Part shown: piece by piece, positions 12,102 through 42,828 of the stretch
Numbering within the stretch: the first letter of the stretch is position 1
Layout of the letters: each line of letters opens with the position of its first letter
Virus record (IMG/VR): IMGVR_UViG_3300042114_000008
Strand: one strand, 5' to 3'
Source: a virus
DNA: 43,233 bases
Made by a program: the position numbers and the translations under genes
The notes under the pieces: generated by a model
The model's input: only the letters and a program-made list of their open reading frames with translations
Database searches by the model: none
Told to the model about the DNA's origin: nothing

Positions 12102-13642
12102 TAACTATAATAATCATCTAAAGACTCATCATCGTTAAGCTCTGTCATTCCTGACATAACCTCCGAACCGTATACTTTACTTGGAGGTATTACAAAGTTA
12201 GGGTCAAGAAAGTTGGCTAAACAATCTGCAGCATCATCGTGTGCAGTTGTTCCACCAGTCTTAATGTATCCCTTTAATTCATAATATAATTCAGCCATAG
12301 CATCTTTGTCCTTGTCTCTAGGAAAATGAATCTTCTTAGATTTCATCATAGGTTGTAAGGCATTAATCCTATATTCTTTTGCAAGTGAAGAGTTATTCTC
12401 TAATCCTTGATAATAGAAATAGTTATTTGTATTCTGCATCCTTACACTTATGAAATGGTCAAGTACTTGTTGCAATGCTGCTTTCTCTGCTCTTGTTTCA
12501 AGTGGTCTATACTCTCTAATATGTTCAAACAAATGTTCTATAGTTTGAGATGGGTCTAGATGTCCACAAGTTATCTTAACAATAAACCAGTGACCATCAC
12601 CATTAACACCTATAGTTATAATTACAGTGTAATCTCCACTTGATTTCTTAGATACAGCTAAATCCATAGTTGTATAGAAGTTCATTTGTGGAAAGTTCTT
12701 AATTATATCGTTATAGTTGTATTCTACAAAATAGTCGTCTTTGAATATTCTCATATCTTCATTAACTACCTCAAGCATCATCTCACGATAGAAGTCTGCT
12801 TCTGCTCCCATTTCCTTAGCCTCAATATATTGTGCCATTATTCTTTCAGGCGTAAACCTATCAGGCCACGACGATACTATATCTTGTACAGGAACTGGAA
12901 ACTCATTAGCTATTGGAAACTTACAGACTTTATATGATGAACTTCTAGACATAAGCATAAGTAAGTCATCATCTGTCATTGGTGTTCCAACTACAATCTT
13001 CTTATAATGAGTAATATCAACTGCATTTGCAACAGTAGAATAGTACCAAGTTTTAAGTTTGTTTCTTTCGTTTACAGATGTTAAAATTGCATCAGTAAGT
13101 ATATCATCGAAGATAAGAAGCTGAGGTCTATAGCCACCCTTCTTTGTACCCCTCATTGATTGTCCAGAACCCTTAGCTTGTATGTGTATCGTGTGACCAT
13201 TTGAATTAGTCAATGCAAGATAGTCTACTTTATCTGCTATAACCTTACCACGCTTATCTTTAGCTAACCATAAGAACTCTTGAAGAACTTCAGAGTTATC
13301 CCATAAATCTCTAATAGCTCTTAATTGGTCAATTGCTTGCTCAATCGTTGCAGAGAATATTATAAGGTTATGTACTATTCCAAAGTTATCCATTTGTCCA
13401 GTCGTTGCTACATACAATGGTGTAAAGTTTGTCATTACTGTAGACTTAGCAGCACCCCTATGGCATAGTGCCAAGAAGTTCTGTGAGCTATCACATACAG
13501 CTTCATCGTAAATTTGGTAATGCATCTTAGGTGTTTTGTTTTGTTCTTGTGGTAAATGTGTATTAACCCAAGAAAAGAACTTTCTAGAATATTGGAGTGG
13601 TCTATATGGCAACCTATAATCAGGTCTTATGATAGCACTCAT
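12101..13642 (-). CDS. terL: Terminase large subunit
   Basis: 513 aa. ATPase motifs: HRGAAKSTVMT (Walker A-like) and QLLIFDDILTD (Walker B). A C-terminal RNase-H-like nuclease region contains TTMDLAVS...GDYTVIITIG and TAHDDAADCLAN. Confidence 0.85.
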   Translation of the reverse strand: MSAIIRPDYRLPYRPLQYSRKFFSWVNTHLPQEQNKTPKMHYQIYDEAVCDSSQNFLALCHRGAAKSTVMTNFTPLYVATTGQMDNFGIVHNLIIFSATIEQAIDQLRAIRDLWDNSEVLQEFLWLAKDKRGKVIADKVDYLALTNSNGHTIHIQAKGSGQSMRGTKKGGYRPQLLIFDDILTDAILTSVNERNKLKTWYYSTVANAVDITHYKKIVVGTPMTDDDLLMLMSRSSSYKVCKFPIANEFPVPVQDIVSSWPDRFTPERIMAQYIEAKEMGAEADFYREMMLEVVNEDMRIFKDDYFVEYNYNDIIKNFPQMNFYTTMDLAVSKKSSGDYTVIITIGVNGDGHWFIVKITCGHLDPSQTIEHLFEHIREYRPLETRAEKAALQQVLDHFISVRMQNTNNYFYYQGLENNSSLAKEYRINALQPMMKSKKIHFPRDKDKDAMAELYYELKGYIKTGGTTAHDDAADCLANFLDPNFVIPPSKVYGSEVMSGMTELNDDESLDDYYS

Positions 13643-14181
13643 TCTATTACATCCACATCTATAATATTACCAGATTTGTCAACCATCATACCACGTTCTG
13701 AAATCTCTGTAAGCTTTTCGTTTATAGACATCTGTAAAGATTGTCCTGATGAATCGCCTTTTAGACTTACTTCGTGGTCTATTTTCTCTTGTTTTAAATA
13801 TGGTTGTAAAGCTTTAATTGCTTCAGTGACATCTCTATTGCTAGCATTAGGGTCATCTATGATTTGCATACCTCTTCTGATAATCTTCTTTCGTTCTCCG
13901 AAATACAAAGATTGTTCATCAGGTCTAAGAAATAATATCAATTCTTGAACCCACTTACTTCTATGGAAGTTAGCAGCTACAGTTCTTGCTTTCTCTATTG
14001 GAACATTAAATACAGCTGAATATACTTGAGATACTACACCACCATCAATTATCTTTTCGCAAAAAGTAACAGCATTGTTAAACCTCTCAACATCAGTTAT
14101 ATTGAAGTTCTTTCTGAAAGTCTCAAGCTCTGCTGATTGTTGAGCATCCCTCTCTTTATACGGTTCTAAATCTTTAGACAT
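13639..14181 (-). CDS. Terminase small subunit (putative)
   Basis: 180-aa ORF directly upstream of terL and overlapping it by 4 nt. It has a strong RBS (GAAAGGAGAAAATAATG) and is the first gene after a non-coding gap. Confidence 0.4.
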   Translation of the reverse strand: MSKDLEPYKERDAQQSAELETFRKNFNITDVERFNNAVTFCEKIIDGGVVSQVYSAVFNVPIEKARTVAANFHRSKWVQELILFLRPDEQSLYFGERKKIIRRGMQIIDDPNASNRDVTEAIKALQPYLKQEKIDHEVSLKGDSSGQSLQMSINEKLTEISERGMMVDKSGNIIDVDVIE

Positions 14182-14252: not shown

Positions 14253-14262
14253 ATTAAAGTAA

Positions 14263-27743: not shown

Positions 27744-27961
27744 AGTAATCTACCTTTCCATACTAAGTAAAGCCTAACAATTAATCAATTAATTTTAGGT
27801 ACTCTTAATCCTTTTTATATATTATAATATAATATACCTTAAAGACACCTTAAACTTATAACAAATTGTAAAAAGATTTGTAAATTTATTTATTTATAAT
27901 CTCTTAAGAATTTGTTATCCCATAGAGCAATTACTATTGAACTACGGAAATAACTTCGTAC

Positions 27962-28025
27962 GAATATACAGTGGACTCGAACCACTTTATACATTAGCTT
28001 TATGTACAATCATCCTGAGTATACT
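27962..28025 (-). other. tRNA-like element lacking a D-arm (pseudo-tRNA or tRNA 3'-half remnant)
   Basis: Minus strand reads AGUAUAC-UCAGGAUGAUUG-UACAU-AAAGCUA-AUGUA-UAA-AGUGG-UUCGAGU-CCACU-GUAUAUU-C. The T-arm is canonical (5-bp stem, UUCGAGU loop) and there is a 7-bp acceptor-like pairing. The 5-7-bp stem carries a 7-nt loop that lacks U33. There is no D-arm, and the variable region is 3 nt. Confidence 0.3.
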
Positions 28026-28319
28026 ATGGAGCATCTTGTATTTTACTAGTTGAACCTTCCAGATGCCTGTAACTAAACCTACAGTCAAGTGCACTCGCTA
28101 TAGGACTTTGGTGATAATATCTTGTATGAGTTAAAAAATTAGTAGATATGCCCCATACATATTTTATGGACAAAATAAATTAATTTATCTAGCTAAGTAA
28201 AAATTAAGGTTTGAACAGTAATTTCTAGCTTATATGTAGCTTAATAATTTATACTAATAAAAGTTGTCCAATTTTATATGGTAGGGCATATTTAAAAATT
28301 TTATAGTTGAGCATTAAGA

Positions 28320-28940: not shown

Positions 28941-29088
28941 AGCAACGAATTGCTTTTTCACATAACTGCACGAAGTGCCAAAAAGAAACACAAATTATAG
29001 TAAGGTTAGAACCACAAAGGATTTGTGGAGTGTTAGCTTCAGTGTTGAGGTAGGACCTTTGTTAATGGAACGTTCCAGCTCGGCTGGA
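28941..29088 (-). promoter_or_regulatory. Cluster of short GC-containing hairpins and palindromes between the RNAP operon terminator and the next gene
   Basis: On the + strand: AGCAA-CGAA-TTGCT (28941-28954); GCAC-GAA-GTGC (28968-28978); CCACAAA-GGA-TTTGTGG (29012-29028); AGGT-AGG-ACCT (29048-29058); the 12-nt palindrome TGGAACGTTCCA (29066-29077); and TCCAGC-TCG-GCTGGA (29074-29088). Confidence 0.45.
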
Positions 29089-29090
29089 CG

Positions 29091-29122
29091 AAAAAAAAAT
29101 GTCAAGGCTTAGAAGCCCTGAC
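29091..29122 (-). terminator. Rho-independent terminator after the RNA polymerase genes
   Basis: Minus strand reads GTCAGGGCT-TCTA-AGCCTTGAC, a 9-bp stem with one G.U pair, followed by A and T9. It begins 3 nt after the stop of ORF 29125..30204. Confidence 0.8.
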
Positions 29123-29124
29123 TA

Positions 29125-30204
29125 TTAGCACAATCCATAGATTGAGTTTAAGATATGTTCTCTTAGCAGAGTTTTATATTTCTTTATGTGTTTGTATTTA
29201 CGACCATCTGCGATTTGTTCCATAATTTCGTATAGTAATTCTGAGTCTAGGATTTCACACATAATATCTTTCCATAATCCTATTAGTTCATCTACTTGGT
29301 TGTAGTGACATCCATAAGCATCGTGAATAGTATGTACGAAGAAATCTAGTCCCAGAATAATTCTTCTAGCAATGTATCCATCTATTGAGTGGATTAGGTT
29401 TGGAGCCATTCCAGCATTATATTTTGATGGTTTGTACTCTGTAACAAATCCAGTGTAGTGAAATCTATGTCCAGCTTTAGAAGTTCTTTCTGCTGTAATT
29501 TCATTTTCTGATTTAACATCATATTTAACATTGAATCCATCTGGAAGTGTCCATCTGTATATAGGAATGTGTTCGCTATTTAGCATTTGAATTTTAGCCA
29601 TAGCTTCCATTGCTTTAGGAGCAATAGAGTATAGAGCATCCTCGAATAATTTAGATAGCTCTGTAGTATCAACTTCACTACCGAAGTGTTTTTCCAAGAT
29701 TGGAACAAGAACATCCCAAGCTGATTGTTTACCATATAATGTTGTCATTAATGGTTTCTTTGTATGTTCACGAAGAAGTACATCTTCCTCGCCGATTAAA
29801 TTGTTTAGTTTATCAGCAAGTATTTGATATCCATCAATTCTTTGATGTGGAACATCTCCTATATTGCATACTCTAGCTGTAGATAAATCTCCAGTTAGTA
29901 TAGCATATAGTTGTAGTGCTTGATTTGAACAGTCAACATATTTTAGTCCTGAGACTGGTAGTCCATTCTCGTGCATTACATAATTATATATTGCTACCTG
30001 AAATAGTTTTGGTTCATCAGTATTTTTGAGTATCCACTCTGTGTCCATAAATTTAGCTTTCCATTCGTCTATATTAGCATCGAAGAATTCGTCTAGTTGC
30101 TCGAATAGTATTTTATCGTTACCGAAGTAAGATACTATATCTAGCTTAAGCCAGAATAGTCCTCTTGGTGTTAGCATTTGTTTAGGCATTGTGATTGTAG
30201 ACAT
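29125..30204 (-). CDS. Single-subunit (T7-like) RNA polymerase, catalytic C-terminal subunit (N4 RNAPII large-subunit analogue)
   Basis: 359 aa. VDCSNQALQLYA corresponds to T7 motif A (DGSCSGIQH). REHTKKPLMTTLYGK corresponds to motif B (RxxxKxxxMTxxYG). NLIHSIDGYIARRI...HTIHDAYGCH corresponds to T7 FVHSQDGSHLR...LIHDSFG (motif C). Confidence 0.85.
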   Translation of the reverse strand: MSTITMPKQMLTPRGLFWLKLDIVSYFGNDKILFEQLDEFFDANIDEWKAKFMDTEWILKNTDEPKLFQVAIYNYVMHENGLPVSGLKYVDCSNQALQLYAILTGDLSTARVCNIGDVPHQRIDGYQILADKLNNLIGEEDVLLREHTKKPLMTTLYGKQSAWDVLVPILEKHFGSEVDTTELSKLFEDALYSIAPKAMEAMAKIQMLNSEHIPIYRWTLPDGFNVKYDVKSENEITAERTSKAGHRFHYTGFVTEYKPSKYNAGMAPNLIHSIDGYIARRIILGLDFFVHTIHDAYGCHYNQVDELIGLWKDIMCEILDSELLYEIMEQIADGRKYKHIKKYKTLLREHILNSIYGLC

Positions 30205-30250
30205 ATTAGTTCCTTTAGAATAAGTATTATTGTTCCATTGTCATTATCAA

Positions 30251-30282
30251 TGTAAGTGTAGTTGTAAGGTATATGTAAGGTA
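30251..30282 (-). repeat. Three helically phased direct repeats TGTAAG(T/G)(G/T)TA in the spacer between the two RNAP subunit genes
   Basis: On the + strand: TGTAAGTGTA at 30251, TGTAAGGTA at 30263 and TGTAAGGTA at 30274, spaced 12 and 11 nt apart. The neighbouring hairpin AGTAACA-N13-TGTTACT (30296-30322) overlaps the upstream stop codon. Confidence 0.5.
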
Positions 30283-30317
30283 ATTGGTAATGAATAGTAA
30301 CAATCTGTTTGTCACTG

Positions 30318-31229
30318 TTACTCGAAGTTAGGAATTAGTCCTCCCTTTTTAATTGTGTTACCTTGTGGATTAATATCGTATCCAGTAGAATATATTCTAC
30401 CTCTGAAGTCGAAACGATATTCGAAGTGCATAGGAATTTCTTCCATGGTAGCATAAGTTTCCTCTGTAGATAACAGTAGGTCATTAGCTTTTTTTCTTGA
30501 CATTCTATCTGAATTTCCTTCTGATAGGAATTTGTCGTAGCTATAGTTTAATTCTAGCTCTTCATCTTGTGAGTGTATCCAAGATTGTTTTTGTAGCTTG
30601 TTTAATGCATCTAGCACTAGCTGAGGTTGCTTTTCAGAACCTCTGCCAGTTGTGCATTTACGCTTTGTTAGTTTATATCCTCCTCTTGATTTCTCTGTCC
30701 AATCATCTGGACATTCGATTAGAGGAAGTCTAAATCTATTGTATGTAGCTCTGAGATTTAAGTTCTCTGAGAATAATATCTCTGAACGAAGGTATGTGAA
30801 TGTTGCAAATTGCCCATCTTCCATACGCTTTACAGATTTAACGATGTCATAGAATATTCCATCGAATTCTGCTATGACATCCATAGCTACATTTAGTGAT
30901 TCCTCTTGGAACATTTTATTAAACTCTCTATCAAGATACATAGTTTTAATTACAGTTTCAAGTGGTATATCCCTTGTACTGGCAGTATGACCTTTAACAG
31001 GTATACCGCTCTTGTCATTTCCTAGGATTGACAGAAGTATTATTATTACTTCCATAATTTCTAGGTCTTCAGCTACTATTTCTCTAGCTGATAACATTTC
31101 GTGAAATTGTGGTATATATGAGTATACCGTTTCTGCGAACTCTGCAATTTCTTTGTTTAGCTCTTCGTGGAGCTTTTGGTTATCGAACTCTTGTTCGATT
31201 TGTAGTTGTGTGAGTCCTGCTATGTTCAT
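30318..31229 (-). CDS. Single-subunit (T7-like) RNA polymerase, N-terminal subunit (N4 RNAPII small-subunit analogue)
   Basis: 303 aa ending in FDFRGRIYSTGYDINPQGNTIKKG. This aligns with T7 RNAP MDWRGRVYAVSMFNPQGNDMTKG (DxxGR motif). It is immediately followed, after a 113-nt spacer, by the catalytic subunit gene. Confidence 0.75.
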   Translation of the reverse strand: MNIAGLTQLQIEQEFDNQKLHEELNKEIAEFAETVYSYIPQFHEMLSAREIVAEDLEIMEVIIILLSILGNDKSGIPVKGHTASTRDIPLETVIKTMYLDREFNKMFQEESLNVAMDVIAEFDGIFYDIVKSVKRMEDGQFATFTYLRSEILFSENLNLRATYNRFRLPLIECPDDWTEKSRGGYKLTKRKCTTGRGSEKQPQLVLDALNKLQKQSWIHSQDEELELNYSYDKFLSEGNSDRMSRKKANDLLLSTEETYATMEEIPMHFEYRFDFRGRIYSTGYDINPQGNTIKKGGLIPNFE

Positions 31230-31240
31230 TTGTTATTCCT

Positions 31241-31447
31241 TTAGAATTTGAAGTATTTAGTATCCTCTTTTACAGTCTTAGTAATCTCTGCCTTTAACAT
31301 ATTTACTAAGTCTTCAGATACAACATTGTTTCTCTTACATACTATGAATATTTCTCTGAATATTCTTTTAGCATCTGATAACTCTTGCTGAGACAATTGT
31401 GCATCAGTAGCTTTAGGTTGTTGTTTCTTGTCATTGAATAAACTCAT
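31241..31447 (-). CDS. Hypothetical early protein
   Basis: 68-aa ORF in the early region upstream of the RNAP genes. Confidence 0.5.
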   Translation of the reverse strand: MSLFNDKKQQPKATDAQLSQQELSDAKRIFREIFIVCKRNNVVSEDLVNMLKAEITKTVKEDTKYFKF

Positions 31448-31450
31448 AGT

Positions 31451-31837
31451 TTATACCAAGAAAGTACCGTGTTGAATACTGTGACTTCTTAGGAAGTATT
31501 TATTGTTTAATCTCTCTGCTCTTCTATACGATAGGTCATATGCTGAAGCATAGTCAATACCGTGAATAGCCATAAGATTGTTAGCTCTAGCTATTATCTC
31601 ATCGTTTGTTAGAGTAATGCTTCCGCTCTCGATAATGTTTTTGTTCATATTAGCTTCAAATCTCATTGATTTGTTTAGCAATACTATGAACTCATTAATA
31701 TTTCCATTGATTAAAGCTTCTGTGATTGCTCTTGAATAGCTTGTATTCATTGATTGTAATTGTTCGATTGCTTGAGCTTCTGTGATTGAACCTTCGATTA
31801 GGTCTTGGTTTAATTCTGTGTATGTGAAATTTGTCAT
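31451..31837 (-). CDS. Hypothetical early protein
   Basis: 128-aa ORF with an AAAGGATATAAAATG RBS. It is preceded by a conserved leader motif. Confidence 0.55.
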   Translation of the reverse strand: MTNFTYTELNQDLIEGSITEAQAIEQLQSMNTSYSRAITEALINGNINEFIVLLNKSMRFEANMNKNIIESGSITLTNDEIIARANNLMAIHGIDYASAYDLSYRRAERLNNKYFLRSHSIQHGTFLV

Positions 31838-31863
31838 TTTATATCCTTTAGATAAATTGGTAT

Positions 31864-31907
31864 ATTGCCTTTGGCACTGTAACGCTTACGGTTTAGTTCA
31901 TTGAACT
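31864..31907 (-). promoter_or_regulatory. Early-gene leader: 20-nt conserved motif plus a 5-bp/3-nt-loop hairpin
   Basis: Minus strand reads AGTTC-AAT-GAACT (31895-31907), then GTAA-GCG-TTAC, then GTTACAGTGCCAAAGGCAAT (31864-31883). The last contains the mini-hairpin TGCC-AAA-GGCA and ends 26 nt before the ATG. Confidence 0.45.
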
Positions 31908-31938
31908 CCATAGGACACACATAATATGTCCTAGCAAT

Positions 31939-32103
31939 TCAAATCCATTTGCTAAAATAATAAGCTATTTTATCATCTAGTCTTAATCTGTACCAGTAGC
32001 TTAGTTGTTGACATTCTATTAGTCTGTCTTTAAGTACTTCTACTGCGAATATTACAAGCAAACATATAGTTGCTATAGTTAATGCGTTTGATATTTCTTC
32101 CAT
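31939..32103 (-). CDS. 54-aa small membrane protein (not in the ORF track)
   Basis: Translation: MEEISNALTIATICLLVIFAVEVLKDRLIECQQLSYWYRLRLDDKIAYYFSKWI. It has an AAAGGATTAACAATG RBS and one TM helix. Confidence 0.5.
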   Translation of the reverse strand: MEEISNALTIATICLLVIFAVEVLKDRLIECQQLSYWYRLRLDDKIAYYFSKWI

Positions 32104-32126
32104 TGTTAATCCTTTAGATATAATGA

Positions 32127-32156
32127 GGCAATTAGCCTGTGTTGTAGCATTGCTAC
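32127..32156 (-). promoter_or_regulatory. Hairpins upstream of the 54-aa early ORF
   Basis: Minus strand reads GTAGC-AAT-GCTAC (32144-32156), a 5-bp stem with a 3-nt loop, followed by AGGC-TAATT-GCCT (32127-39). Confidence 0.4.
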
Positions 32157-32203
32157 ACTATTTAGTAAACACCATAGAACCATCAGAAGATAGCTCTAGC
32201 TGA

Positions 32204-32488
32204 TTACATACCAGTTGATGTCCCAAGGATAATTGCACCTGCAATACCTAAAGCCATACCAGCCAATGATGACATTGAATGAGTTTTGATAAGCTCTTTT
32301 CTATCGCTATTTGCATACTTAATCACTTGGATAAGCTCTGCATCAGATAGTTCTGCCAGTTCTGCTCTGAAGTATTTGTTTGCTATAGTTCTTGCTCTTT
32401 CAGTTCCAATAGTTGAATCTATTGCCATAAGTAATGGTGAAGTAGTAGCAGTTGTTTCCGTAGCAGTTGTATTAGTTGTAGTCGTCAT
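32204..32488 (-). CDS. 94-aa early protein with a Thr-rich N-terminus and a C-terminal TM helix; probably the first gene of the genome
   Basis: Translation begins MTTTTNTTATETTATTS and ends LAGMALGIAGAIILGTSTGM. I start it at the ATG at 32488 behind AAAGGATTTTACA. The track's TTG-started extension to 32578 covers the conserved leader and is rejected. Confidence 0.55.
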   Translation of the reverse strand: MTTTTNTTATETTATTSPLLMAIDSTIGTERARTIANKYFRAELAELSDAELIQVIKYANSDRKELIKTHSMSSLAGMALGIAGAIILGTSTGM

Positions 32489-32516
32489 TGTAAAATCCTT
32501 TGTGATTTGATTGTTT

Positions 32517-32589
32517 GTTGCCTTTAGCACAGTAACTCTTGTAGACCATATCAGTGTTGATATCCGTTGTATGTACAAGCTTGGCTTGT
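32517..32589 (-). promoter_or_regulatory. Early-gene leader: 20-nt conserved motif plus hairpins
   Basis: Minus strand reads ACAAGC-CAA-GCTTGT (32575-32589; 6-bp stem, 3-nt loop), then ATATCA-ACAC-TGATAT (32548-32563), then GTTACTGTGCTAAAGGCAAC (32517-32536). The last is 17/20 identical to the motif at 31864-31883 and ends 28 nt before the ATG. Confidence 0.45.
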
Positions 32590-33192
32590 GGTGTGTTAGA
32601 GTTGGTTATGTATTGTGTGTTAGATTGGTTGGTAATGGCTTATGTGTTTGCTGTGGTGTTTGAGGGTTCCTCATAACCCTAGCCTTACCATTTCTCCTAC
32701 CATCACATAACAGTGTTAGTGCTTGTAGTAGTAAAAGGAAGCTTAGTACGAATTACTAGCTTAGCATAGGGGGGGGGTGGTGTGGTTTTAGCCAGTTTCA
32801 CAGGCTCTGGGGTTGTGGGGGTTCATTCGTAATTTTTTTTGTGAAATTTTCGAGATATGAGCCACATTCAGTTGTTTTTAAGTTTGCATAAACCACATAT
32901 ATGCAACATAACTTTATATATTACACACATAATATCAACATATTATTATGCAGTAAGCAACATAATACGCACATATTGTATGTAACAAAAATCTCTTTGT
33001 ATTATAAAGGTAGCCAATAGATAGAGAATCCACTGCTGGCTACGGTTGTGGGCTCGACTGTTCTGCCTAACTACGGGTTAACGCAAGATATACAGATGGT
33101 ATATACATAGAAATGACTAGCATTAACTATGGTTGTAGATACGGTGTGTTCAATGGTGTGTGCTATGTGATAGCAGGTGGATTGAAGCACAG
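32590..33192. other. 0.6-kb non-coding block between the last late gene and the first early gene. Candidate genome terminus, terminal repeat or control region.
   Basis: No ORF with an RBS on either strand. It contains G9 (32769-32777), G4 and G5 runs (32809-32821) and T8 (32833-32840). Direct repeats: GTGTGTTAGAGTTGGTT (32591) and GTGTGTTAGATTGGTT (32615), and GCAACATAA twice (32903, 32957). Hairpins lie at 32663-32680, 32739-32762 and 33010-33043. Confidence 0.6.
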
Positions 33193-33393
33193 TTATTTCA
33201 TAACAATCTGTTTGTGAAAATAAGTATCTACTTGATGAAATGTACATATATCAGATGTTGAATAGTGTCCATTTTCATTTGGTTTGAGTCTTATTGGTTT
33301 AGCATTAAGCTCAAGGATTTGTGAGATTACTAGAGAAGCTGGAGCGTTGCTATCGAACTCAACAACTACTCCATTGTCTAGTTGTATTAACAT
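33193..33393 (-). CDS. Hypothetical protein (last gene of the late/lysis operon)
   Basis: 66-aa ORF starting 2 nt after the endolysin stop. Confidence 0.45.
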   Translation of the reverse strand: MLIQLDNGVVVEFDSNAPASLVISQILELNAKPIRLKPNENGHYSTSDICTFHQVDTYFHKQIVMK

Positions 33394-33394
33394 A

Positions 33395-33835
33395 CTAAGC
33401 CTTTAATTCAAAGTGTGGATAGTCTTGTAGTGTGTGCTCAGCAATGTCACCATCGCCATCCCAGTCTGCACCCCATACAAGCTCTACTCCTAATCTCTTA
33501 GCACATTTCATAACAACATCTTTTTGTTTATAAAATCTATCTAAATTGTTCCAATCAACTGGATATGGACAAATGTCGATAGCAAGGCTTGGAAGATGAT
33601 TGTGTTTAGATTTTTTAACAGTACCATCTTTATCGGTTACAGTTTTACCAGTCTTAACCCATCTTCCATTACTAAAGACTCTTCCTTGTTTATAAAGAGC
33701 TAGCTGCTCAGATGGAGTTCTATGTCCAAATACTATAGTAATGTCAAGCTCTTTAATAACTTCTAACATTACTCTTTTAATATCTGGATGACATGTATCT
33801 AATTTAGTTAAAGAAGCTTTACCAAAATTAGGCAT
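33395..33835 (-). CDS. Endolysin, peptidase M15 (VanY / L-alanyl-D-glutamate peptidase type)
   Basis: Motifs: HRTPSEQLALYKQGR, SKHNHLPSLAIDI (SxHxxGxAxD-like zinc site) and DYPHFEL. The start was set at the ATG at 33835, which has an AAAGGAG RBS. Confidence 0.8.
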   Translation of the reverse strand: MPNFGKASLTKLDTCHPDIKRVMLEVIKELDITIVFGHRTPSEQLALYKQGRVFSNGRWVKTGKTVTDKDGTVKKSKHNHLPSLAIDICPYPVDWNNLDRFYKQKDVVMKCAKRLGVELVWGADWDGDGDIAEHTLQDYPHFELKA

Positions 33836-34058
33836 TGAATGTCTCCTTTCTAAGTTCGTTATATGCTTCATTGAACATATCAGCTCTAGTTGGATTAGCT
33901 TTTGATTTAGCTATTCCATCAATCATAATAGTTGCTATATCTTTTGTAATACCATCAGATGTATCAGTTAATAATCTATTAATACCATATCCAATAGCAG
34001 ATTTAGCAACCTCAGTTCCAGCAACTCTTAAGAGAAATTGCAATATAAATGTTAACAT
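33828..34058 (-). CDS. Small lysis-cassette protein with a hydrophobic N-terminus (holin candidate)
   Basis: 76 aa beginning MLTFILQFLLRVAG, directly upstream of the endolysin and overlapping it. Confidence 0.3.
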   Translation of the reverse strand: MLTFILQFLLRVAGTEVAKSAIGYGINRLLTDTSDGITKDIATIMIDGIAKSKANPTRADMFNEAYNELRKETFNA

Positions 34059-34067
34059 AAGATTCCT

Positions 34068-34343
34068 TTACTTAATAACAAGACCAAGTAATGCAACTAT
34101 TACTGCGCTAATGACAATCCAATTAACCTTCCTAAGCGAATCTTCAATATCATCAAGCCTAGCATTTGCAACTTTTTGTCTTTCTTGAAGAACTCCAACT
34201 TCTGTGTTTACACGATTATGAAATTCATCACCTTTCTCTATACTAGCAGCAAGCTTATTAAGCGTTGCATCAAGATGAGTTAACTTCTCTGCTAATATAA
34301 TAGAATTTACGTCAGTTGTTCTTCTTTCTTGAAGTGGTGGCAT
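34068..34343 (-). CDS. Small coiled-coil protein with a C-terminal TM anchor (holin or lysis-accessory candidate)
   Basis: 91 aa ending VNWIVISAVIVALLGLVIK. It lies between the giant virion protein gene and the endolysin. Confidence 0.3.
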   Translation of the reverse strand: MPPLQERRTTDVNSIILAEKLTHLDATLNKLAASIEKGDEFHNRVNTEVGVLQERQKVANARLDDIEDSLRKVNWIVISAVIVALLGLVIK

Positions 34344-34380
34344 AAATTGTCCTTATTTTTTCTTTGGTTTACAAGCCATA

Positions 34381-37300
34381 TTATTCTCCTTCGTTTCTGT
34401 ATTCTCTTATAGATTTATATCTAGTCTTGTCATATGGTGTATCGTACTTAGGAGCGTCTGTGTTGTCCTCGCTAGTAGCACTGTATGTGCTTTCATTAGA
34501 ACCTATGCTAGAGGTATCATTATCTTTCAGATAAGTCTGTTTGTCATCAGATACCTCGCCTACTTCATCAGAAGCAAATGCATCATATATCATCTGAACT
34601 ACTCCACGATTATCAACATACTCTCCATCAGAATTTCTATATGGAGCAAGTCTATCTTTCCATAACAAGTCAGGCTCAGTTATTGGATTACGAACTACTT
34701 CATCATCCATATAGTATGCTCCTTGTTTGTAAATGTCTCTGTATACTCCAGGAATTAACTTGTGTATATTTCTAGTTTCATATAGAGCACCATCTCCAGT
34801 TACGAAACCATATGGCATATCAACTAAAGATTCAACTGGAGACACAGAGCTAAGATGTGTATTAGTCTCATCACTAAGATATAGAATACTAAGAGCTATA
34901 GCAGCAGCTTTTAATGGATTATGCTTAACAGTTTTAGCAACAGCAGGCAATACAGAAGCAGCCCACTTAGCAAATACAGCTAATCCATACTTATCAATAG
35001 CATCAATAAACACTGGAGCTATCTCATCCATTTGACCGAACATATCATTTGTTCTCATCATAGCATCGATATTGTTTGAACCAGAGTCTTTAAATCCACG
35101 GTACATCATATATCTAGCTTGGAAGTCAAGGTAAGAGAAAGCGTCCTTAGCAAATCCACCAGTTATTGCATTTTGATTAAACATAATTTCATTTGTTATT
35201 CTATCTAAATGTCCACCAGTTAATTCACTAAGCATATTATTAAGCATTGAACCATTAGTTCTAACACCGTCTAATGTATTGATCGACAATCCATCTTTAA
35301 GCATTTGTACTACTTCATTATCTCTATACTTAGCTATAAGTTCAGGAGTTAATTTACCTTGTGCAGTAGCTAAATCAAATTCAGCAGTAATAGCTTTGAA
35401 TTCTCTCCAGGCTCCAATAGCATCTTTATTGTATCTTAATGCCTTAATTGGATTACCGTGAGCTAACATATGGTAGCTATACGACACTAGAAAGGCATTC
35501 TTAAAGGAACTTAAATTCTTCAAAACATTACTCTGTTTAAATATTGACACTGTATCTTTAAGTAATCTATCAGCTACTTTAAGACCATAGCTAGTATCAG
35601 CATTAGATAAACTAAATTCATTACGACCTATTAGTTTATCCTTGAATTCTTTGTTTACATATACAATTTCATCTCTAGCAAACTTAGGCAATCTATACGA
35701 TTCTTCAAGTGATAACTTAACGAATCCATCTTGCTTATTTTTACTAAACATAGATTTGAATGTATCATCACTATGTGTCAATATCTCTGTGAAAGTATTT
35801 AGTTGAGCATCTTTTCTTCTGAGTGTAGCTTCAGTATTACCAAGCATCATAGCTAAGTCTCGTTTAAGACCCATCTTAGTTCTTATTTCTAAATCAGCAA
35901 CACTCATAAATCCTCTAGCAGATACTTTAAGTCCGTGCTTCTCTGCATATTCATAAGGATTAGCAACATCAGTTACTTTAATTCCTTTGACATCTTCTCC
36001 AACTTTAGCTGACATACTATCAAAACCAAGTGCTCCTGCTTCAAGTTTAGGATCTGCATCGTGTACATATCGTTTCATCTTGTTATCCCAAATCTTAGGA
36101 TTATCAAATGAATCTTGTATATACCCTTTTTGCATAAGATTTAAGTCATTAGTAAATGCAAATATAGCAGTACTTCTATCTTTCATGCTTTTGGCAATAG
36201 ATAGCAAGTCTTGTACTTCAGCAGTATCAACATTCTTAGCATACCATTCCCATCCATCTACATTGTCCATAGCTTTAATTGAAATCATTTGGTCAATGAT
36301 ATCTTCATATCCTTTTAGATTGTAATGTTCAGCTATAACACTAGCATTATTAGCATAGAATCCTCTTTGGTTTTCACCTCTACCTATTCCATATGTACTT
36401 GCATCTATATGCTTTTGCATTCTAGAATATAGTTGATAGTGGTCTGCAAACCAAACATCAGCTTCAGCCTTACTCTTTATACCACGAAGTCCAATAGCGT
36501 CAGTAAAGAATACATTTCTCATATATTCATCTTGATTCTTATCTTTCAATAACTTCTGGATATGCTTAGTAAGTCTATCACCAGCTTCATCAGCCAATTT
36601 CTTAGACGGTGTTGTTATTCCTAATATTTTAGAAAATGTCTTATGTTCTTTAGAGTATTCATATTTATTCTTAAGATGCTTACCAGTATCACTTATAGAA
36701 TCCAAGAATTCTTTAAGCATACCTTTATGTTCAGCATTTAAGTTTTTGTTTACTCCATCGTATGCAGTTTCTCCATACTTTTTTGAAGCTTCTCTTAATG
36801 CAGATAATTGCTCATCTACTATATGAGATTCTCTCCATTTAGTTTGCATCTCTGCAAATGCTGGATTCTTTTCAGCCATATCGTCAAGAATACTCTCAAC
36901 TTTATTGTAAACTATAATGTCAAAACCATTAACTTTATCAAGAGTATCTTCTATAGACTTCCATATACCATTAGCTCTTGGAGACATATCTCCAGACTTA
37001 GATTTAAAGAAATCAAATATTCTCTTAGCATTACCAGCAAATGAAGCTTTGTCAAATCCAGATTTCATACCTTCGCTAAACGATTGTTTCGCTTGTTCAG
37101 AACCAGCTTCAGCATTCTTAAGTCTTTCAGCCTCTTCTAATACTTTACGAATTTCTTCGTCAAACATATCGAACTTACCAGCTTCAGTTTTAATTGCATC
37201 ATCAATTTGTTCAGATGGAATATCAATAGGCTTTCCACTTGTAATAGCTTCATCTATTGATTTAGCTGTAGCAGTACCAGATTCTAATACTTCACTTGCA

Positions 37301-40300
37301 GTCTGTCCTCTAGTTCCAGAACCGCTAGACATAATGTCATTAGCTAGCTTATTTCTAATCTCTCTAATTCCAGACATCTTAGTTCCAACTGGATATCCTC
37401 TTTCAGTGAAGAATTGTCTATCACCTTTAATTGATGATTTAAGATTTGGATTATATTCAACTCCAGCTCTAAATCTATTATACAGATATTCATTAGCAGA
37501 TTTCCAAGCACCTTTGCTAACTCCATCTGGAGCAGGTATCATAGTTTTCTCACTAAATCCTTTACCTTGAATTGCAAGAGCTAATTGTCTTTCAAATACA
37601 TCGTCTCCAGCTTTTGGTATAGACACTTTAGTATGAACGATTTCATCAATCATAGCATCTACTATTGTATGATGCTCTTGATTTCTGTGAGTCATTGTAG
37701 TCATATATGAAATCATTGTTTCAATCTTAGTCATACCAGTTGCTGGAACCATTTCACTCCAAGGCTTTTTAACTATCTCTTTAACTTCGTTTTGAAAATC
37801 TTCTACCTTCAAGAATTCTCTGCTTTTATCTTTAAAGATTTTATCTAAATTTCCTTTACGAGGCATATCAATTTTACCTTCACTAAGTTCTTTAATAGCC
37901 TTATTACCAAAGTCTTCATCTTGTAATTGTTTCATAAGACTTCTGTATTTAGCATCAACTTCTTTTCGCATTTCTTTTGGATAGGTTATTGCATCGTGTT
38001 TAGTCTGAAGATTTAAATCTTTTCTAATTGTACGAGCAATCCAAGCATCAATACTATGAATAAATCTAGGCATTAAAGCCTTAGAAAATTCATCTTTAGT
38101 ACCATTTACTATATTAACTTTACCAATAGTTTTAGTTTTTCCACCTGATGTTTCAACTATGTTATAAGTCTTATATCCAGACAATTCTATTTCAACTTTC
38201 TTACCGTCAGGTAATGTCCAAGAGAATTTACCAGTAGTGTTAGCTTTAAATACTTCATCCATCTTTTTAGCAAATTCTCCAATAGCAGGAACTTCTTTAG
38301 CCATTGCAGAGTAATACTCTTGCACAAACTTATTAGCATTATCAATTGTTTTAAGCCAAGGTAAATCAGCAAGTGCAGCCTCTGCAGTACCTTTCTCCAT
38401 AGAGCCATACATATCAGGAGTATATACTGTCTTAACATCATCTTTACTTACAGCCGAACCTTTTAGATTCTCAAAGAAACCGTCGTCAGCTTTATTAATA
38501 TGATTTCCAACAGTCTCTCTGAAGTCAATTCCATCTGCTTTCTTAAATACTCTTTGTGCAAGCTTAACATCTCCAGTGATTACAGATATAAGAGCAGCAA
38601 CACTATTAACAGCGTCACTAGTCTCTTCTGAATGCTTAATTTTAAAGACATTCTCTTTATCAGTTAATCCTAATTTATTAGAATTATAATCTTTAAGCAA
38701 TGTATTAAACTCTATATTAGCAGCTTCCTTAGTTTTAGCAACATCTTTTGCTGGAACATTTGGCATATGCTTATCTACAAGCAATATTCTTGCTCTTCCA
38801 ACATCTTTGAAAAAGTCAGGATTAGCGTCTATATCTCTCTTCTCAGATAGACTAAGTTTATATTCGAAAGGTCTTTCAGCATTTTTACTATATCTATCAA
38901 GTATTCCTTTTTCTATATAATCAGCAACTGCTTGTCTCTTGTTAACTATTACTTTGTTTTTTTCATAGTCAAACTCAAATGACTTATCTTTTGCAATACC
39001 TCTTTTTTCTTTGATAGATTTAACTGATACTTTTCTAGGAATTACCATTATATCATCATAAGCTTTAGTTCTTGCTTCACCAAATTTACTAACTTCATCA
39101 GCAGTAGTTAATTTACCAGCTACTTGTTCTCGTGCAGAGAATTCTTTATCAAGTCTTTTAGACTCTCTAAATGCTAGTTCATCAGACTTAATCTCGCCAT
39201 TATTGAAAGCAGTCACATCGTACAGTCTGTTTCTATGTCCCTCTAGTTCAGCAACTCCTTGTGGAAATTTATACTTAACATTATCAGGTATATTGTTTAT
39301 GTCTAGGTTTTCTCTTGGAAATGCAAGTTTTGCCTTAATCTTTAAATCATCAGATGCTTTAAGCATTGCAGTCTTATCGACTTTATCAATTACAGCTTTA
39401 GCAATAAGTGGACCTCTAGCATCTTCAGATAGTGAATGATATTTTTCGGTATGATATGCAGCAGTTCCACCAGCTTTATTTTTGTTAGCATCTGATGCAA
39501 GTTTAAACTCAGTTTTAATATTACTTGAATAATCTATTGGTTCATACTCTGATATCTTAGCATTTTCAACTTTAGATTTAACTGCATTATCTATATCGTC
39601 TTTAGTTGGTATAGTTATGTTATTAGCTCTAGCTTCTGCATATAATGCTCTTTTTCTATAGAGTTGTTTTTGAGTATCATCAGTAACTTTATCAGCAATT
39701 TGATTATACAATTTAGACTCAAATTTATCTCTAAGTTGAACTTTCTCAATATCAGATAGATTTTTAGTAGATTTTATTTTAGCTTCTGTCTTACCATAAG
39801 CATCAAGATTGTTTACAGCTTTGCCGAAAGATTTCATTGCATCATCTGCATATGCATCTTCTTGTCCAGCTTTCATACGGTTAAGTTTAAGCGATGCAGC
39901 TTGACTATCTCCACCTAAATGAGATGTGAGATAATCACTAGCATACTGTCTACCACCAGTATCAGTAAAGGTTTCTTGTAATTTACTACCTCCAGGTAGA
40001 ATAACTTCATCTTTCTTCTTAAATCCTTCAAGTCTTCTCTTTTCAGCAATGCTTCTAACCTTAGGGTCTACCACTTCTTGAGTCTTAATACCTTTTTTCA
40101 TAGTTCTAGTTTTATCAGTAACAACTGCAGGACCACCTTTAGGAGAACCTTCAGTATCTACAACATAATTCTTTAATGATGTTCCAGTGTATTTTTTAAC
40201 TGCAGTATCAAGACCTTCTACTCCAACTTCTAAAATATCAGCAGCAATCTCACGTGCTATAGGCTTAGCTATTTCAAATGCATTACTAACTTTATCTTTT

Positions 40301-41130
40301 ACTTTTTGAGTAGCAGTTGGAAGCGGAGCATCAACTCCAGTTCCACCGAATTTTCTAGAAGTAAAATCATAAGCTCTCATTAATGGTGCAGTACCAGCAG
40401 TACCAACAAATCCTACTGATGCATCAAGTAATGTTCTTTGCGCAATAGTATCTGGGTCTTCTTGAAGAACTGCTCCAACACCAGTTCCTACTGCTCCTAG
40501 TTTTAAAGCATTAGATGTAGCATCTTTAAGAAGAGCACCTCTAAGTTCAGACTTATAATCTTGTTTCATAAATTTAAGAGCATCATCAGATACAAAGTGT
40601 GCAGTAACATTATCAGCCAATTCTTTAGGCTTAGCATTTAGTGCGATTCTTGTATTAGACATAGCTCCAATTTTATAAAACGGAAGATATGCAACAGCTT
40701 CTGCTGCAAGTCCAGTAATATCTGAACCTAGTGTACTTCCACGATTTGCTACTTCTCTTTTAAAATCAAGATTAGCTTTAGTTGCAACATCAGATAACTT
40801 ATCTGTAATATCTGGAGTAGCATCATATGAAAATGGTTGAGTAATAGCACTTCCAATAGCTTGGAATATGCTAGAGTCTTTGTTTGTTTTTACAAAATTA
40901 TCTGCAAATCTTTCAGGATTCATAGCATTTTCAATTACATTTCCAGTGCTAGAAATTCCTTTCATTAAAACATTACCAATAGTTGGAGTTATAGTTTCAA
41001 GAACTCCAACTTTCTTATCTCCTGCAATTCTACTTGCTTCGTCAAATCCATACTTAAGCTCATTTTCACGCATTTGTTTCGGAGTTAAGTATCCTCCTGT
41101 GTAAGCAGGAGCTTTTTCTAAATTAGCCAT
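34381..41130 (-). CDS. Giant virion-associated protein with a central T7-like single-subunit RNA polymerase domain (N4 vRNAP analogue)
   Basis: 2249 aa. SKDDVKTVYTPDMYGS is motif B-like. MPRFIHSIDAWIARTIRKDLNLQTKHDAITYP parallels NLIHSIDGYIARRI...IHDAYG of the 359-aa RNAP subunit and T7 FVHSQDGSHLR...IHDSFG. It sits in the late/virion operon at the position of the T7 internal core proteins. Confidence 0.7.
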   Translation of the reverse strand: MANLEKAPAYTGGYLTPKQMRENELKYGFDEASRIAGDKKVGVLETITPTIGNVLMKGISSTGNVIENAMNPERFADNFVKTNKDSSIFQAIGSAITQPFSYDATPDITDKLSDVATKANLDFKREVANRGSTLGSDITGLAAEAVAYLPFYKIGAMSNTRIALNAKPKELADNVTAHFVSDDALKFMKQDYKSELRGALLKDATSNALKLGAVGTGVGAVLQEDPDTIAQRTLLDASVGFVGTAGTAPLMRAYDFTSRKFGGTGVDAPLPTATQKVKDKVSNAFEIAKPIAREIAADILEVGVEGLDTAVKKYTGTSLKNYVVDTEGSPKGGPAVVTDKTRTMKKGIKTQEVVDPKVRSIAEKRRLEGFKKKDEVILPGGSKLQETFTDTGGRQYASDYLTSHLGGDSQAASLKLNRMKAGQEDAYADDAMKSFGKAVNNLDAYGKTEAKIKSTKNLSDIEKVQLRDKFESKLYNQIADKVTDDTQKQLYRKRALYAEARANNITIPTKDDIDNAVKSKVENAKISEYEPIDYSSNIKTEFKLASDANKNKAGGTAAYHTEKYHSLSEDARGPLIAKAVIDKVDKTAMLKASDDLKIKAKLAFPRENLDINNIPDNVKYKFPQGVAELEGHRNRLYDVTAFNNGEIKSDELAFRESKRLDKEFSAREQVAGKLTTADEVSKFGEARTKAYDDIMVIPRKVSVKSIKEKRGIAKDKSFEFDYEKNKVIVNKRQAVADYIEKGILDRYSKNAERPFEYKLSLSEKRDIDANPDFFKDVGRARILLVDKHMPNVPAKDVAKTKEAANIEFNTLLKDYNSNKLGLTDKENVFKIKHSEETSDAVNSVAALISVITGDVKLAQRVFKKADGIDFRETVGNHINKADDGFFENLKGSAVSKDDVKTVYTPDMYGSMEKGTAEAALADLPWLKTIDNANKFVQEYYSAMAKEVPAIGEFAKKMDEVFKANTTGKFSWTLPDGKKVEIELSGYKTYNIVETSGGKTKTIGKVNIVNGTKDEFSKALMPRFIHSIDAWIARTIRKDLNLQTKHDAITYPKEMRKEVDAKYRSLMKQLQDEDFGNKAIKELSEGKIDMPRKGNLDKIFKDKSREFLKVEDFQNEVKEIVKKPWSEMVPATGMTKIETMISYMTTMTHRNQEHHTIVDAMIDEIVHTKVSIPKAGDDVFERQLALAIQGKGFSEKTMIPAPDGVSKGAWKSANEYLYNRFRAGVEYNPNLKSSIKGDRQFFTERGYPVGTKMSGIREIRNKLANDIMSSGSGTRGQTASEVLESGTATAKSIDEAITSGKPIDIPSEQIDDAIKTEAGKFDMFDEEIRKVLEEAERLKNAEAGSEQAKQSFSEGMKSGFDKASFAGNAKRIFDFFKSKSGDMSPRANGIWKSIEDTLDKVNGFDIIVYNKVESILDDMAEKNPAFAEMQTKWRESHIVDEQLSALREASKKYGETAYDGVNKNLNAEHKGMLKEFLDSISDTGKHLKNKYEYSKEHKTFSKILGITTPSKKLADEAGDRLTKHIQKLLKDKNQDEYMRNVFFTDAIGLRGIKSKAEADVWFADHYQLYSRMQKHIDASTYGIGRGENQRGFYANNASVIAEHYNLKGYEDIIDQMISIKAMDNVDGWEWYAKNVDTAEVQDLLSIAKSMKDRSTAIFAFTNDLNLMQKGYIQDSFDNPKIWDNKMKRYVHDADPKLEAGALGFDSMSAKVGEDVKGIKVTDVANPYEYAEKHGLKVSARGFMSVADLEIRTKMGLKRDLAMMLGNTEATLRRKDAQLNTFTEILTHSDDTFKSMFSKNKQDGFVKLSLEESYRLPKFARDEIVYVNKEFKDKLIGRNEFSLSNADTSYGLKVADRLLKDTVSIFKQSNVLKNLSSFKNAFLVSYSYHMLAHGNPIKALRYNKDAIGAWREFKAITAEFDLATAQGKLTPELIAKYRDNEVVQMLKDGLSINTLDGVRTNGSMLNNMLSELTGGHLDRITNEIMFNQNAITGGFAKDAFSYLDFQARYMMYRGFKDSGSNNIDAMMRTNDMFGQMDEIAPVFIDAIDKYGLAVFAKWAASVLPAVAKTVKHNPLKAAAIALSILYLSDETNTHLSSVSPVESLVDMPYGFVTGDGALYETRNIHKLIPGVYRDIYKQGAYYMDDEVVRNPITEPDLLWKDRLAPYRNSDGEYVDNRGVVQMIYDAFASDEVGEVSDDKQTYLKDNDTSSIGSNESTYSATSEDNTDAPKYDTPYDKTRYKSIREYRNEGE

Positions 41131-42147: not shown

Positions 42148-42828
42148 TTATTTAATATTCTGAAGTCTAGTTGTTTCTGCAGCTTTGCGAGCATTATAAT
42201 CAACTTGAGCTTGAGGACTTGTATCTCTAGAAGTCCAATCAATAGCAGACAGTCCAGCCTTATCATCAATAAATTGACCATATTGCTTATTCATCATATC
42301 TCTGTTGTAGGCATTGTTAGCTTTAGTTTCTTTAAGAGAAGCTCTAGAATTCATATAACCTAATCCTTGAAATAATGCACTTGCAGTATTTTTAAAAGCA
42401 TCAGTTCCTACGAAATCTTTAATAGCTGTACCACTACCAGTTAACGGACCCCAGTCAAAGTTGAAGCTTGATGTAGATTCTGGAGTATTTTGTTGAATTC
42501 CTGGAACTACAAATGCTTCATTTGAGGTATCTAATATATTATCTACAGCAGGATAATCAGAACTATATTTGTATGGAGATTTAACACCATCTAAAACACT
42601 AATTCCACCAGCTCCAAGTCCAGTAAAATCAGTAATATTAGACGGAGTTAAATAATTACTTGATTGTTGAAGCATATCACTAGGATTGTATTTTGCAGTA
42701 GAATAATCAAAACCGCTATCTCCAATTCCTCTCCATAATTCATCAGTCTTTATAGTCTTAACTGGAGCGTTAGGATTCTTTGTTGCAATTTTTCCTGCGT
42801 ATTTCTTTTTGTTTTCAGGTTTTGCCAT
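42148..42828 (-). CDS. Virion protein (possible internal/ejection protein)
   Basis: 226-aa ORF in the late operon. It shares the stop-RBS-start junction TAAGGTTGC(C/T)ATATGGC with the giant gene. Confidence 0.35.
   Translation of the reverse strand: MAKPENKKKYAGKIATKNPNAPVKTIKTDELWRGIGDSGFDYSTAKYNPSDMLQQSSNYLTPSNITDFTGLGAGGISVLDGVKSPYKYSSDYPAVDNILDTSNEAFVVPGIQQNTPESTSSFNFDWGPLTGSGTAIKDFVGTDAFKNTASALFQGLGYMNSRASLKETKANNAYNRDMMNKQYGQFIDDKAGLSAIDWTSRDTSPQAQVDYNARKAAETTRLQNIK

Follow-up and report, generated by a model that had tools for sequence, protein, structure and literature searches.

The sequence analysed here, hereafter the window, is the whole 43,233-nucleotide (nt) stretch of IMG/VR virus record IMGVR_UViG_3300042114_000008 and represents an entire phage genome of ~43 kb. 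Three small hairpins lie in the non-coding DNA upstream of its first three early genes (g1, g2 and g3), and a preliminary description had proposed them, by likeness to phage N4, as the early promoters of an injected virion RNA polymerase (vRNAP). Comparison with related genomes points to a different arrangement. Hairpin 1, upstream of g1, is the best supported of the three and is probably a hairpin-type early promoter (P1), and the element conserved in the spacers is a 24-nt motif that may act as a second type of early promoter. The preliminary description judged the system correctly, and probably hairpin 1 as well; its view of the three hairpins as the three early promoters, forming one set, is unsupported. 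The coordinates of all features are collected in Table 1.

Hairpin 1 shares a fixed geometry with hairpins of related phages

Metagenomic relatives with the same gene order as the window were recovered (L001, L002, L003, L004/L014, L005, L006, L011, L012, L013 and L021). L001 and L021 are 97–99% identical to the window. The small subunit of the split RNA polymerase RNAPII is 45–50% identical to that of the window in L002 and L006, and 38–45% identical in L003, L004/L014, L005, L011, L012 and L013. All genes of the window lie on the minus strand, and the plus strand is the template strand, as the preliminary description had it.

The 6-bp stem of hairpin 1 is followed by 9 nt and then by the tetranucleotide CGGA, a geometry that recurs in most members of a class of hairpins found in the relatives. 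Ten GC-clamped hairpins with a TNAC loop are present in L003, L004, L005, L011 and L012. Without exception they lie on the sense strand, either within the non-coding or intergenic DNA of the early region or shortly past the early terminator. The sequence YGGW occupies positions +15 to +18 after the loop in L003, L004 (twice), L011 and L012, and is YGGA in four of these five cases; the CGGA of hairpin 1 lies at the same offset. Of 15 candidate hairpins, hairpin 1 among them, 6 have GG at loop end +16/+17, where the background frequency for other hairpins of the same loci is 0.033 (binomial probability 7e-6, before correction for ~20 possible offsets). The early and middle hairpin promoters of phage LUZ7, mapped by ONT-cappable-seq, start at a G 13–15 nt from the hairpin (PMC9163698). 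It is mainly the fixed geometry and the GG offset shared with the TNAC hairpins, together with the LUZ7 start spacing, that argue for hairpin 1 as a real promoter. The TNAC hairpins themselves are likely early promoters of their lineages, or else stable UNAC tetraloops of RNA. A tract rich in A+C and poor in G upstream of the first hairpin was strong only in L004 and L012 and was not used as evidence.

The order of elements around hairpin 1 is also shared. In both the window and L002, hairpin 1 or its positional counterpart is followed by a second hairpin (hpB) and then by the 24-nt motif. The L002 counterpart of hairpin 1, GTCC-CAAG-GGAC, has a different stem, and hpB of L021 differs from that of the window in the loop only. 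A small hairpin begins within a few bases after the putative GG start in the window, L002, L004 and L012, which is the look that would be expected of a transcript stabilised at its 5′ end.

A 24-nt motif is the conserved block of the early spacers

The sense-strand motif GKTACWGTGCYAAAGGCAACAAAC is the only block common to the early spacers of the window and ends 27–32 nt before the ATG. Its 19-nt core pattern has two exact matches in the window where 0.06 are expected, and neither a pattern scan nor nhmmer found a further copy there. Every nhmmer match with E<0.1 is a sense-strand one and falls between early genes of the window lineage, L002 or L006; in L002 copies precede g1 and g3, and in L006 one precedes g3. 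When orthologous spacers are aligned, the motif stands out as a conserved island, with the flanks, including the three hairpins, at background identity, and it is the sole block conserved between the spacers of genomes whose RNAPII proteins are ~50% identical. In the g1 spacer the motif block is near-identical between the window and L002, and conservation continues from the motif to the Shine-Dalgarno (SD) sequence. The centre of the motif is a mini-hairpin, TGCY-AAA-GGCA. The copy before g2 is degenerate; its equivalent in L002 reads CACAG followed by TTAGTC-AAA-GACTAA.

Duplex promoters of the T7/T3 group are ~23 bp long and span −17 to +6, the T3 promoter ending in ...CACTAAAGGGAGA. Like them, the motif is a long, near-invariant block (~20 bp), specific to the phage lineage and repeated before genes, and the polymerases of the window are T7-like. 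Its core CTAAAGG matches T3-type promoters over −5..+2 and corresponds to the form of T3/T7-type promoters around +1, and the sequence YAAA|GG is compatible with initiation at the G that follows an AT-rich −4..−1 segment. Unlike in T7/T3 promoters, the rest of the motif is unrelated, a small inverted repeat is present, only the first three genes are preceded by it, and the g2 copies keep the hairpin and not the sequence. We tentatively take the motif, as part of the model set out below, for a sequence-specific early promoter and otherwise for a leader RNA element.

Further candidate occurrences and uses of the motif were rejected. A scan of IMG/VR gave 23 loci, of which only L030 (the same phage) encodes relatives of window proteins, and the other 22 were taken as chance matches. 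A motif-like match at L011 9689 lies inside what appears, from its translation and not from a database result, to be conserved coding sequence. The motif was also considered as a small upstream open reading frame (ORF), but its frame relative to the upstream ATGs and the downstream gene differs between copies.

The three hairpins differ in conservation

The preliminary description had put one hairpin upstream of each of the first three early genes, 47–94 nt from the ATGs. They are found there, one per early intergenic region, on the plus strand, with loop centres 94, 47 and 64 nt from the ATGs of g1, g2 and g3, respectively. The stem lengths it gave stand for hairpin 1 (6 bp) and hairpin 3 (5 bp), whereas the stem of hairpin 2 has to be extended to 6 bp (TGTAGC/GCTACA). 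All three have 3-nt loops and purely Watson-Crick stems and are able to form on the template strand. Calculated folding energies of the single strands indicate modest stability (−4.5, −3.9 and −2.1 kcal/mol for hairpins 1, 2 and 3), and 16 of 200 shuffles were as stable as hairpin 3. A reading of the three as intrinsic terminators was rejected, none being followed by a T-run on the sense strand; the only clear intrinsic terminator is the one at 29101–29122, which closes the early operon.

Across the whole window, 82 perfect hairpins with stems of at least 5 bp and 3-nt loops were counted, compared with 64.9 ± 8.7 in dinucleotide shuffles; 82 was reached in 9 of 200 shuffles and the window-wide excess is weak. 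The density of such hairpins is 2.5 times as high in non-coding as in coding DNA, and the chance that an early upstream region of ~100 nt holds one is 0.07–0.13. The hairpins are unusual as a set; each alone is not.

In 97%-identical L021 all three hairpins are kept, with the loop of hairpin 2 changed from AAT to AAC. Covariation in relatives had been suggested as a check: hairpin 1 has its positional counterpart in L002, but hairpin 2 has none in L002 or L006, and for hairpin 3 the L002 alignment shows a gap and L006 offers a counterpart of no more than 3 bp. Hairpin 3 is the weakest and least conserved of the three. Hairpin 2, with a GG 13–14 nt from its loop centre, appears to be lineage-specific and its function is putative. 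Rather than conserved promoters, hairpins 2 and 3 could be lineage-specific extras that serve as accessory promoters or as structures at the mRNA level.

N4 promoters share sequence from −17 to +1 and are marked by a GC-rich heptamer around a G-purine-A loop on the template strand, whose central purine is at −11 and whose G and A form a sheared pair, by a −8G and by an A4 'ruler' (PMC4496689). As in N4, where stems have 5–7 bp and loops 3 nt, the window hairpins are small and lie at a putative first-injected end, ahead of an early gene set to which a split T7-like RNAPII belongs (PMC4496689). Read in N4 numbering, the AGC/GCT core of hairpins 1 and 2 also reproduces the −9C/−8G of N4, the arm ...AGC fitting in both, whereas the arm of hairpin 3 (...TTC) does not. 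Unlike in N4, the hairpins have no common flank beyond AGC/GCT in two of them and hence no −17..+1 block; their template loops (TTG, ATT and ATT) have a central T and no purine; no sense-strand T-run precedes the start, which means that the template A4 ruler is absent; and the candidate G start lies 12–18 nt from the loop centre instead of 11. N4-type transcripts begin at a fixed distance downstream, and the activity of these promoters requires the hairpin, supercoiling and SSB. LUZ7 hairpins have at least 4–6 bp, loops of 3–4 nt and a G start, a description that fits hairpin 1, the TNAC class and the post-terminator hairpins (see below). However, loops are conserved within the LUZ7 class and not among the three window hairpins, the spacing of hairpin 1 is 16–18 nt, and the window starts are predicted whereas those of LUZ7 are mapped.

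A giant polymerase and a probable leading genome end

The hairpins had been set in an N4-like frame. This frame holds, because a giant polymerase-bearing protein, a split RNAPII, a terminator and a probable genome end adjoining the early genes were all found. Residues 839–1080 of the giant protein, within a polymerase domain of about residues 560–1250, match an RNA polymerase PHROG, and the consensus of its family (proteins of 1.7–2.9 thousand residues, 46 cluster representatives) contains the T7-like motifs DxxGRxY, DASNS, K..YGQG and HDA. The giant protein has no cysteine, compared with a mean of 0.58% in the other proteins of the window, and 21 of its 22 long homologues are also cysteine-free. 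This is a further likeness to N4, and the absence of cysteine has been noted for the giant vRNAP of LUZ7, LIT1 and PEV2. The protein is presumed to be ejected from the virion, and we infer that it is packaged there. It is shorter than its N4 equivalent (2,249 versus 3,500 residues), as the genome is smaller (43 versus 70 kb). Two proteins encoded just upstream (332 and 226 residues; 41140–42138 and 42148–42828) are cysteine-free as well, and the giant protein with these two neighbours resembles the trio of ejected proteins of N4.

No closer kinship of the polymerase domain to N4 mini-vRNAP than to the T7, mitochondrial or N4 RNAPII enzymes was detected. A profile search of PDB sequences gave N4 RNAPII as the best match (1e-14) and also mitochondrial RNA polymerase, and N4 mini-vRNAP was not among the matches. 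The top 50 Foldseek matches of a structural model of moderate quality (predicted local distance difference test, pLDDT, 70) are N4 RNAPII, mitochondrial RNA polymerase and T7 RNA polymerase. Neither search tied the domain specifically to N4 mini-vRNAP.

Upstream of g1 lie 704 nt of non-coding DNA, inside which independent assemblies break. An IMG/VR contig breaks at 32819, and of the contig pair L022/L021, L022 (from a ~90%-identical relative) ends at 32824 and its partner L021 starts at ~32647. Because three independent contigs break at these points, the region ~32647–32823 is a probable genome end with a short terminal repeat. It lies ~230 nt upstream of hairpin 1, and the contig breaks together with the terminator closing the operon are consistent with an end that lies upstream of the early genes and would be injected first. 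Tracts of C7–8 followed by TAY, similar to the C8 tract of the window, are also seen at the corresponding place in L002 and L013. Positions 32860–33000, which adjoin the presumed right genome end on its inner side, are AT-rich with iteron-like repeats (ATGTTGC, ATGTKG) and could be an origin or a packaging signal. The GC skew of the plus strand is ~0 to +0.1 in the early region (29000–33000) and −0.1 to −0.29 in the rest of the genome.

Possible readings of the early control region

In the model that fits best, positions 31838–32823 would be the region of early control at the genome's leading end, in an uncultivated podophage of ~43 kb with an N4-style programme, in which a giant virion protein bearing a polymerase would act first and a phage-made, split T7-like RNAPII would follow. 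Hairpin 1 would be the hairpin-type entry promoter, with initiation at the GG 16–17 nt past the loop (32565–32564), and the transcript would begin with hpB. The 24-nt motif before g1 and g3, degenerate before g2, would be a gene-proximal early promoter recognised by its sequence, and hairpins 2 and 3 would be extras. Anatomy, conservation pattern, polymerase genes and terminator are observed; which polymerase would read which element, and each start site, we infer. As a whole the model is possible and tentative.

Several observations speak against this model. When the TNAC class was cast as a covariance model and searched at E up to 10, the early regions of the window, L002 and L006 gave no match, and neither hairpins 1, 2 and 3 nor the 24-nt motif were detected; it is therefore geometry and position that link hairpin 1 to this class. 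The TNAC stems covary (98% of cells paired, five of six pairs with compensatory changes), but the instances were chosen as perfect hairpins and these pairing statistics are partly circular. A TAAC loop is also present in the early terminator of L006, and the TNAC class could act in RNA. As for the motif, its g2 copies retain the hairpin and not the sequence, which suits recognition of structure better than that of duplex sequence, and its tight spacing to the Shine-Dalgarno sequence and its SD-like TAAAGG would also fit a leader-RNA or translation element. In three of the five strong copies the mini-hairpin contains a T-G pair on the sense strand, which becomes a C-A mismatch on the template strand and therefore argues against an N4-type template-strand hairpin within the motif. 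Finally, the joint chance that all three early spacers hold a triloop hairpin is ~0.0006, a post hoc value for a hairpin definition picked after seeing the data, and this co-occurrence above chance leaves room for functional hairpins 2 and 3.

The same data can be read with the 24-nt motif as the only class of early promoter, all hairpins including hairpin 1 being 5′ or 3′ stabilisers of the mRNA, processing sites, attenuators or incidental. The motif is indeed the sole conserved spacer element, the post-stop hairpins have RNA-like features (cUUCGg loops, G-U wobbles on the sense strand and a wobble turned into a Watson-Crick pair in L021), and the polymerase domain is nearest to duplex-promoter enzymes and N4 RNAPII, not to N4 mini-vRNAP. 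This reading is unlikely, if still a serious competitor, as it leaves unexplained both the fixed arrangement of hairpin, 9 nt and YGGA shared by hairpin 1 and five relatives and the strand- and region-specific placement of the TNAC hairpins. Slightly less likely is the converse, in which hairpin 1 and its counterparts are the only promoters and the motif works in RNA, within the leader or between the cistrons of a polycistronic early transcript, for instance as a standby site for ribosomes, an operator of translation or a hairpin that stabilises the RNA. The constant distance to the ATG, the SD-like core, the T-G wobble tolerated on the sense strand only, the g2 copies that conserve hairpin over sequence and the conservation running from motif to SD in the g1 spacer all suit it. 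No cognate RNA-binding protein was identified, however, and we know of little precedent for RNA operators of 24 nt repeated before several early genes in phages with their own polymerase, where repeated promoters are the rule.

The scheme of the preliminary description, in which all three triloop hairpins are N4-type template-strand promoters, one per early gene, appears improbable. It would account for the presence of one perfect hairpin in each of three consecutive early spacers, for stems purely of Watson-Crick pairs that can form on the template strand and for the −9C/−8G given by the AGC/GCT core of hairpins 1 and 2. A G lies 12–18 nt downstream of each loop centre, at the LUZ7 distance (13–14 nt) for hairpin 2, but a G within a 6-nt span is expected in ~70% of cases by chance. 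That the hairpin promoters of LUZ7, which serve both phage polymerases, are tandem and numerous (PMC9163698) is also in its favour. Against it stand the lack of a shared −17..+1 block, the unconserved loops with their central template T, the weakness of hairpin 3, the mutated loop of hairpin 2 in L021 and the absence of counterparts of hairpins 2 and 3 in L002 and L006 despite the same genes and spacers, as well as a polymerase domain closer to the N4 RNAPII, T7 and mitochondrial enzymes than to N4 mini-vRNAP. Transcription of the early genes by the host RNA polymerase, with no element serving as a phage-polymerase promoter, is highly improbable. Nothing specific favours it; an AT-rich stretch bearing a weak sigma-70-like match is found upstream at 32911–32938. 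A sigma-70 reading was rejected, since such matches are fewer than in shuffles (19 versus 27) and none coincides with a conserved element; moreover, the part of the motif that is conserved would, in a sigma-70 promoter, be the spacer, and a cysteine-free giant polymerase makes little sense without early promoters of its own.

Other features of the window

The hairpins that follow the stop codons of g1 and g2 look like RNA-level structures and not like template-strand promoters. In L021 the loop of the g1 post-stop hairpin is changed to TTCG and one wobble to a Watson-Crick pair, and the counterparts in L002 and L006 carry cUUCGg loops. A box, TCTATGGTG, shared after the post-stop hairpins of the window g2 spacer and the L002 g3 spacer was rejected as too short for significance. 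L021 has a 145-nt insertion (709–852, opposite window ~31939) between g2 and the post-stop hairpin, with an extra 47-residue ORF and no motif or hairpin of its own.

Terminators equivalent to that of the early operon follow the RNAPII large-subunit gene in L003, L004, L005 and L006. Beyond it lies the fourth hairpin of the preliminary description, present at 29074–29088 as TCCAGC-TCG-GCTGGA on the plus strand. The hairpin at 29012–29028 is the most N4-like in the window, but heads the next transcription unit. Its L002 form (6249–6265), CGACAAG-TCC-TTTGTCG, shows a compensatory change, and L003 has an analogue (12267–12281), CTGTAC-TCC-GTACAG. A further hairpin, GCAC-TTC-GTGC at 28968–28978, has a template-strand GAA loop, which is of the N4 type like the GGA loop at 29012–29028. 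The post-terminator hairpins with GGA and GAA loops are candidate promoters of the next (replication) gene block.

Table 1. Coordinates of features in the window and, for the TNAC hairpins, in related contigs.
Feature	Position	Strand	Remarks
Hairpin 1	32575..32589	-	Plus strand ACAAGC-TTG-GCTTGT, sense ACAAGC-CAA-GCTTGT; 6-bp stem
CGGA box	32563..32566	-	GG at 32565-32564, putative start site for hairpin 1
Hairpin hpB	32548..32563	-	Sense ATATCA-ACAC-TGATAT; L002 counterpart GATAGT-ATTG-ACTATC
24-nt motif, g1 copy	32513..32536	-	GTTACTGTGCTAAAGGCAACAAAC; contains mini-hairpin TGCT-AAA-GGCA
24-nt motif, g3 copy	31860..31883	-	GTTACAGTGCCAAAGGCAATATAC; contains mini-hairpin TGCC-AAA-GGCA
Degenerate g2 motif hairpin	32126..32138	-	ACACAG + AGGC-TAATT-GCCT; −3.2 kcal/mol
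Hairpin 2	32143..32157	-	Plus strand TGTAGC-ATT-GCTACA, sense TGTAGC-AAT-GCTACA; 6-bp stem
Hairpin 3	31895..31907	-	Plus strand AGTTC-ATT-GAACT, sense AGTTC-AAT-GAACT; 5-bp stem
TNAC hairpins	L003 8191; L004 1413/1670/2414; L005 626/1296/5503; L011 3716; L012 199/1585	sense	
Probable genome terminus and short terminal repeat	32647..32823	.	Includes C8 tract; independent contig breaks
Early operon (g1, g2, g3, g4, RNAPII small, RNAPII large)	29125..32488	-	
Early genes	g1 32204..32488; g2 31939..32103; g3 31451..31837; g4 31241..31447	-	
RNAPII small subunit	30318..31229	-	N4-RNAPII-like split polymerase
RNAPII large subunit	29125..30204	-	N4-RNAPII-like split polymerase
Giant protein, 2,249 residues, T7-like RNA polymerase domain	34381..41130	-	PHROG match, family consensus motifs
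Post-stop hairpin after g1	32175..32198	-	TAGAGCTATC-TTCT-GATGGTTCTA then TGGTG; G-T wobbles, sense strand only
Post-stop hairpin after g2	31911..31933	-	TAGGACA-N9-TGTCCTA; −4.8 kcal/mol, z −3.5
Intrinsic terminator closing early operon	29091..29122	-	GTCAGGGCTTCTAAGCCTTGAC then T-run; canonical
Post-terminator hairpin	29074-29088	-	Sense TCCAGC-CGA-GCTGGA
Post-terminator hairpin	29012-29028	-	CCACAAA-TCC-TTTGTGG; template-strand GGA loop

The giant gene sits between the structural and the lysis genes, the latter coming after it, and head, portal, terminase and tail-fibre genes are found elsewhere in the window. Both ends of the window carry the same 24-nt tandem repeat, with an identical overlap of 100 nt, and the window is therefore a circularly closed assembly, cut within a repeat-bearing gene downstream of the major head gene. 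The repeat, CAGTTGTTTCTGCAGGTTTTTGTG, is perfect at 1–120 and 43091–43233, and its sense strand would encode AQKPAETT repeats. Among GenBank phages, neither a DNA search with window 31000–34400 nor tblastn with the giant protein gave a match, and tRNA and Rfam scans of the window found none.

Between replication genes, positions 27744–28319 are a very AT-rich non-coding stretch of 576 nt with a tRNA T-arm-like sequence, GGTTCGAGTCCAC; ARAGORN found no tRNA and Rfam no match in this region. A 13-mer, AAACTAATTTTAT, is common to 1257–1310 and 14182–14262. The copies lie ~15–25 nt ahead of their genes, the major head gene and gene 13639..14181, and may represent a motif of late promoters or leaders; the second copy is preceded by a long hairpin, ACAGTGCAC...GTGTACTGT.

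Implications for the phage family

For annotation, small hairpins before early genes are insufficient to call vRNAP promoters; here conservation pointed to a different element. N4 and its relatives of ~70 kb are known to use hairpin promoters read by an injected polymerase, and the same strategy would here be met in an uncultivated family of much smaller phages. Confirmation of hairpin 1 or the motif would make this family a second, independent system in which to study how T7-like polymerases evolve to recognise DNA structure versus sequence, and would provide new orthogonal polymerase–promoter pairs. Taken further, though this is somewhat doubtful, the window would represent a compact ~43-kb lineage with an N4-like injected-polymerase programme, run by a giant ejected polymerase that is no detectable relative of N4 vRNAP, with a catalytic domain of T7- or RNAPII-like appearance, and with two promoter grammars at the leading genome end: a non-GNA hairpin followed by 9 nt and YGGA, seen in hairpin 1 and in the relatives' TNAC hairpins, and the 24-nt motif. 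If true, this would suggest that the recognition of hairpin promoters by single-subunit RNA polymerases arose separately here or diverged long ago.

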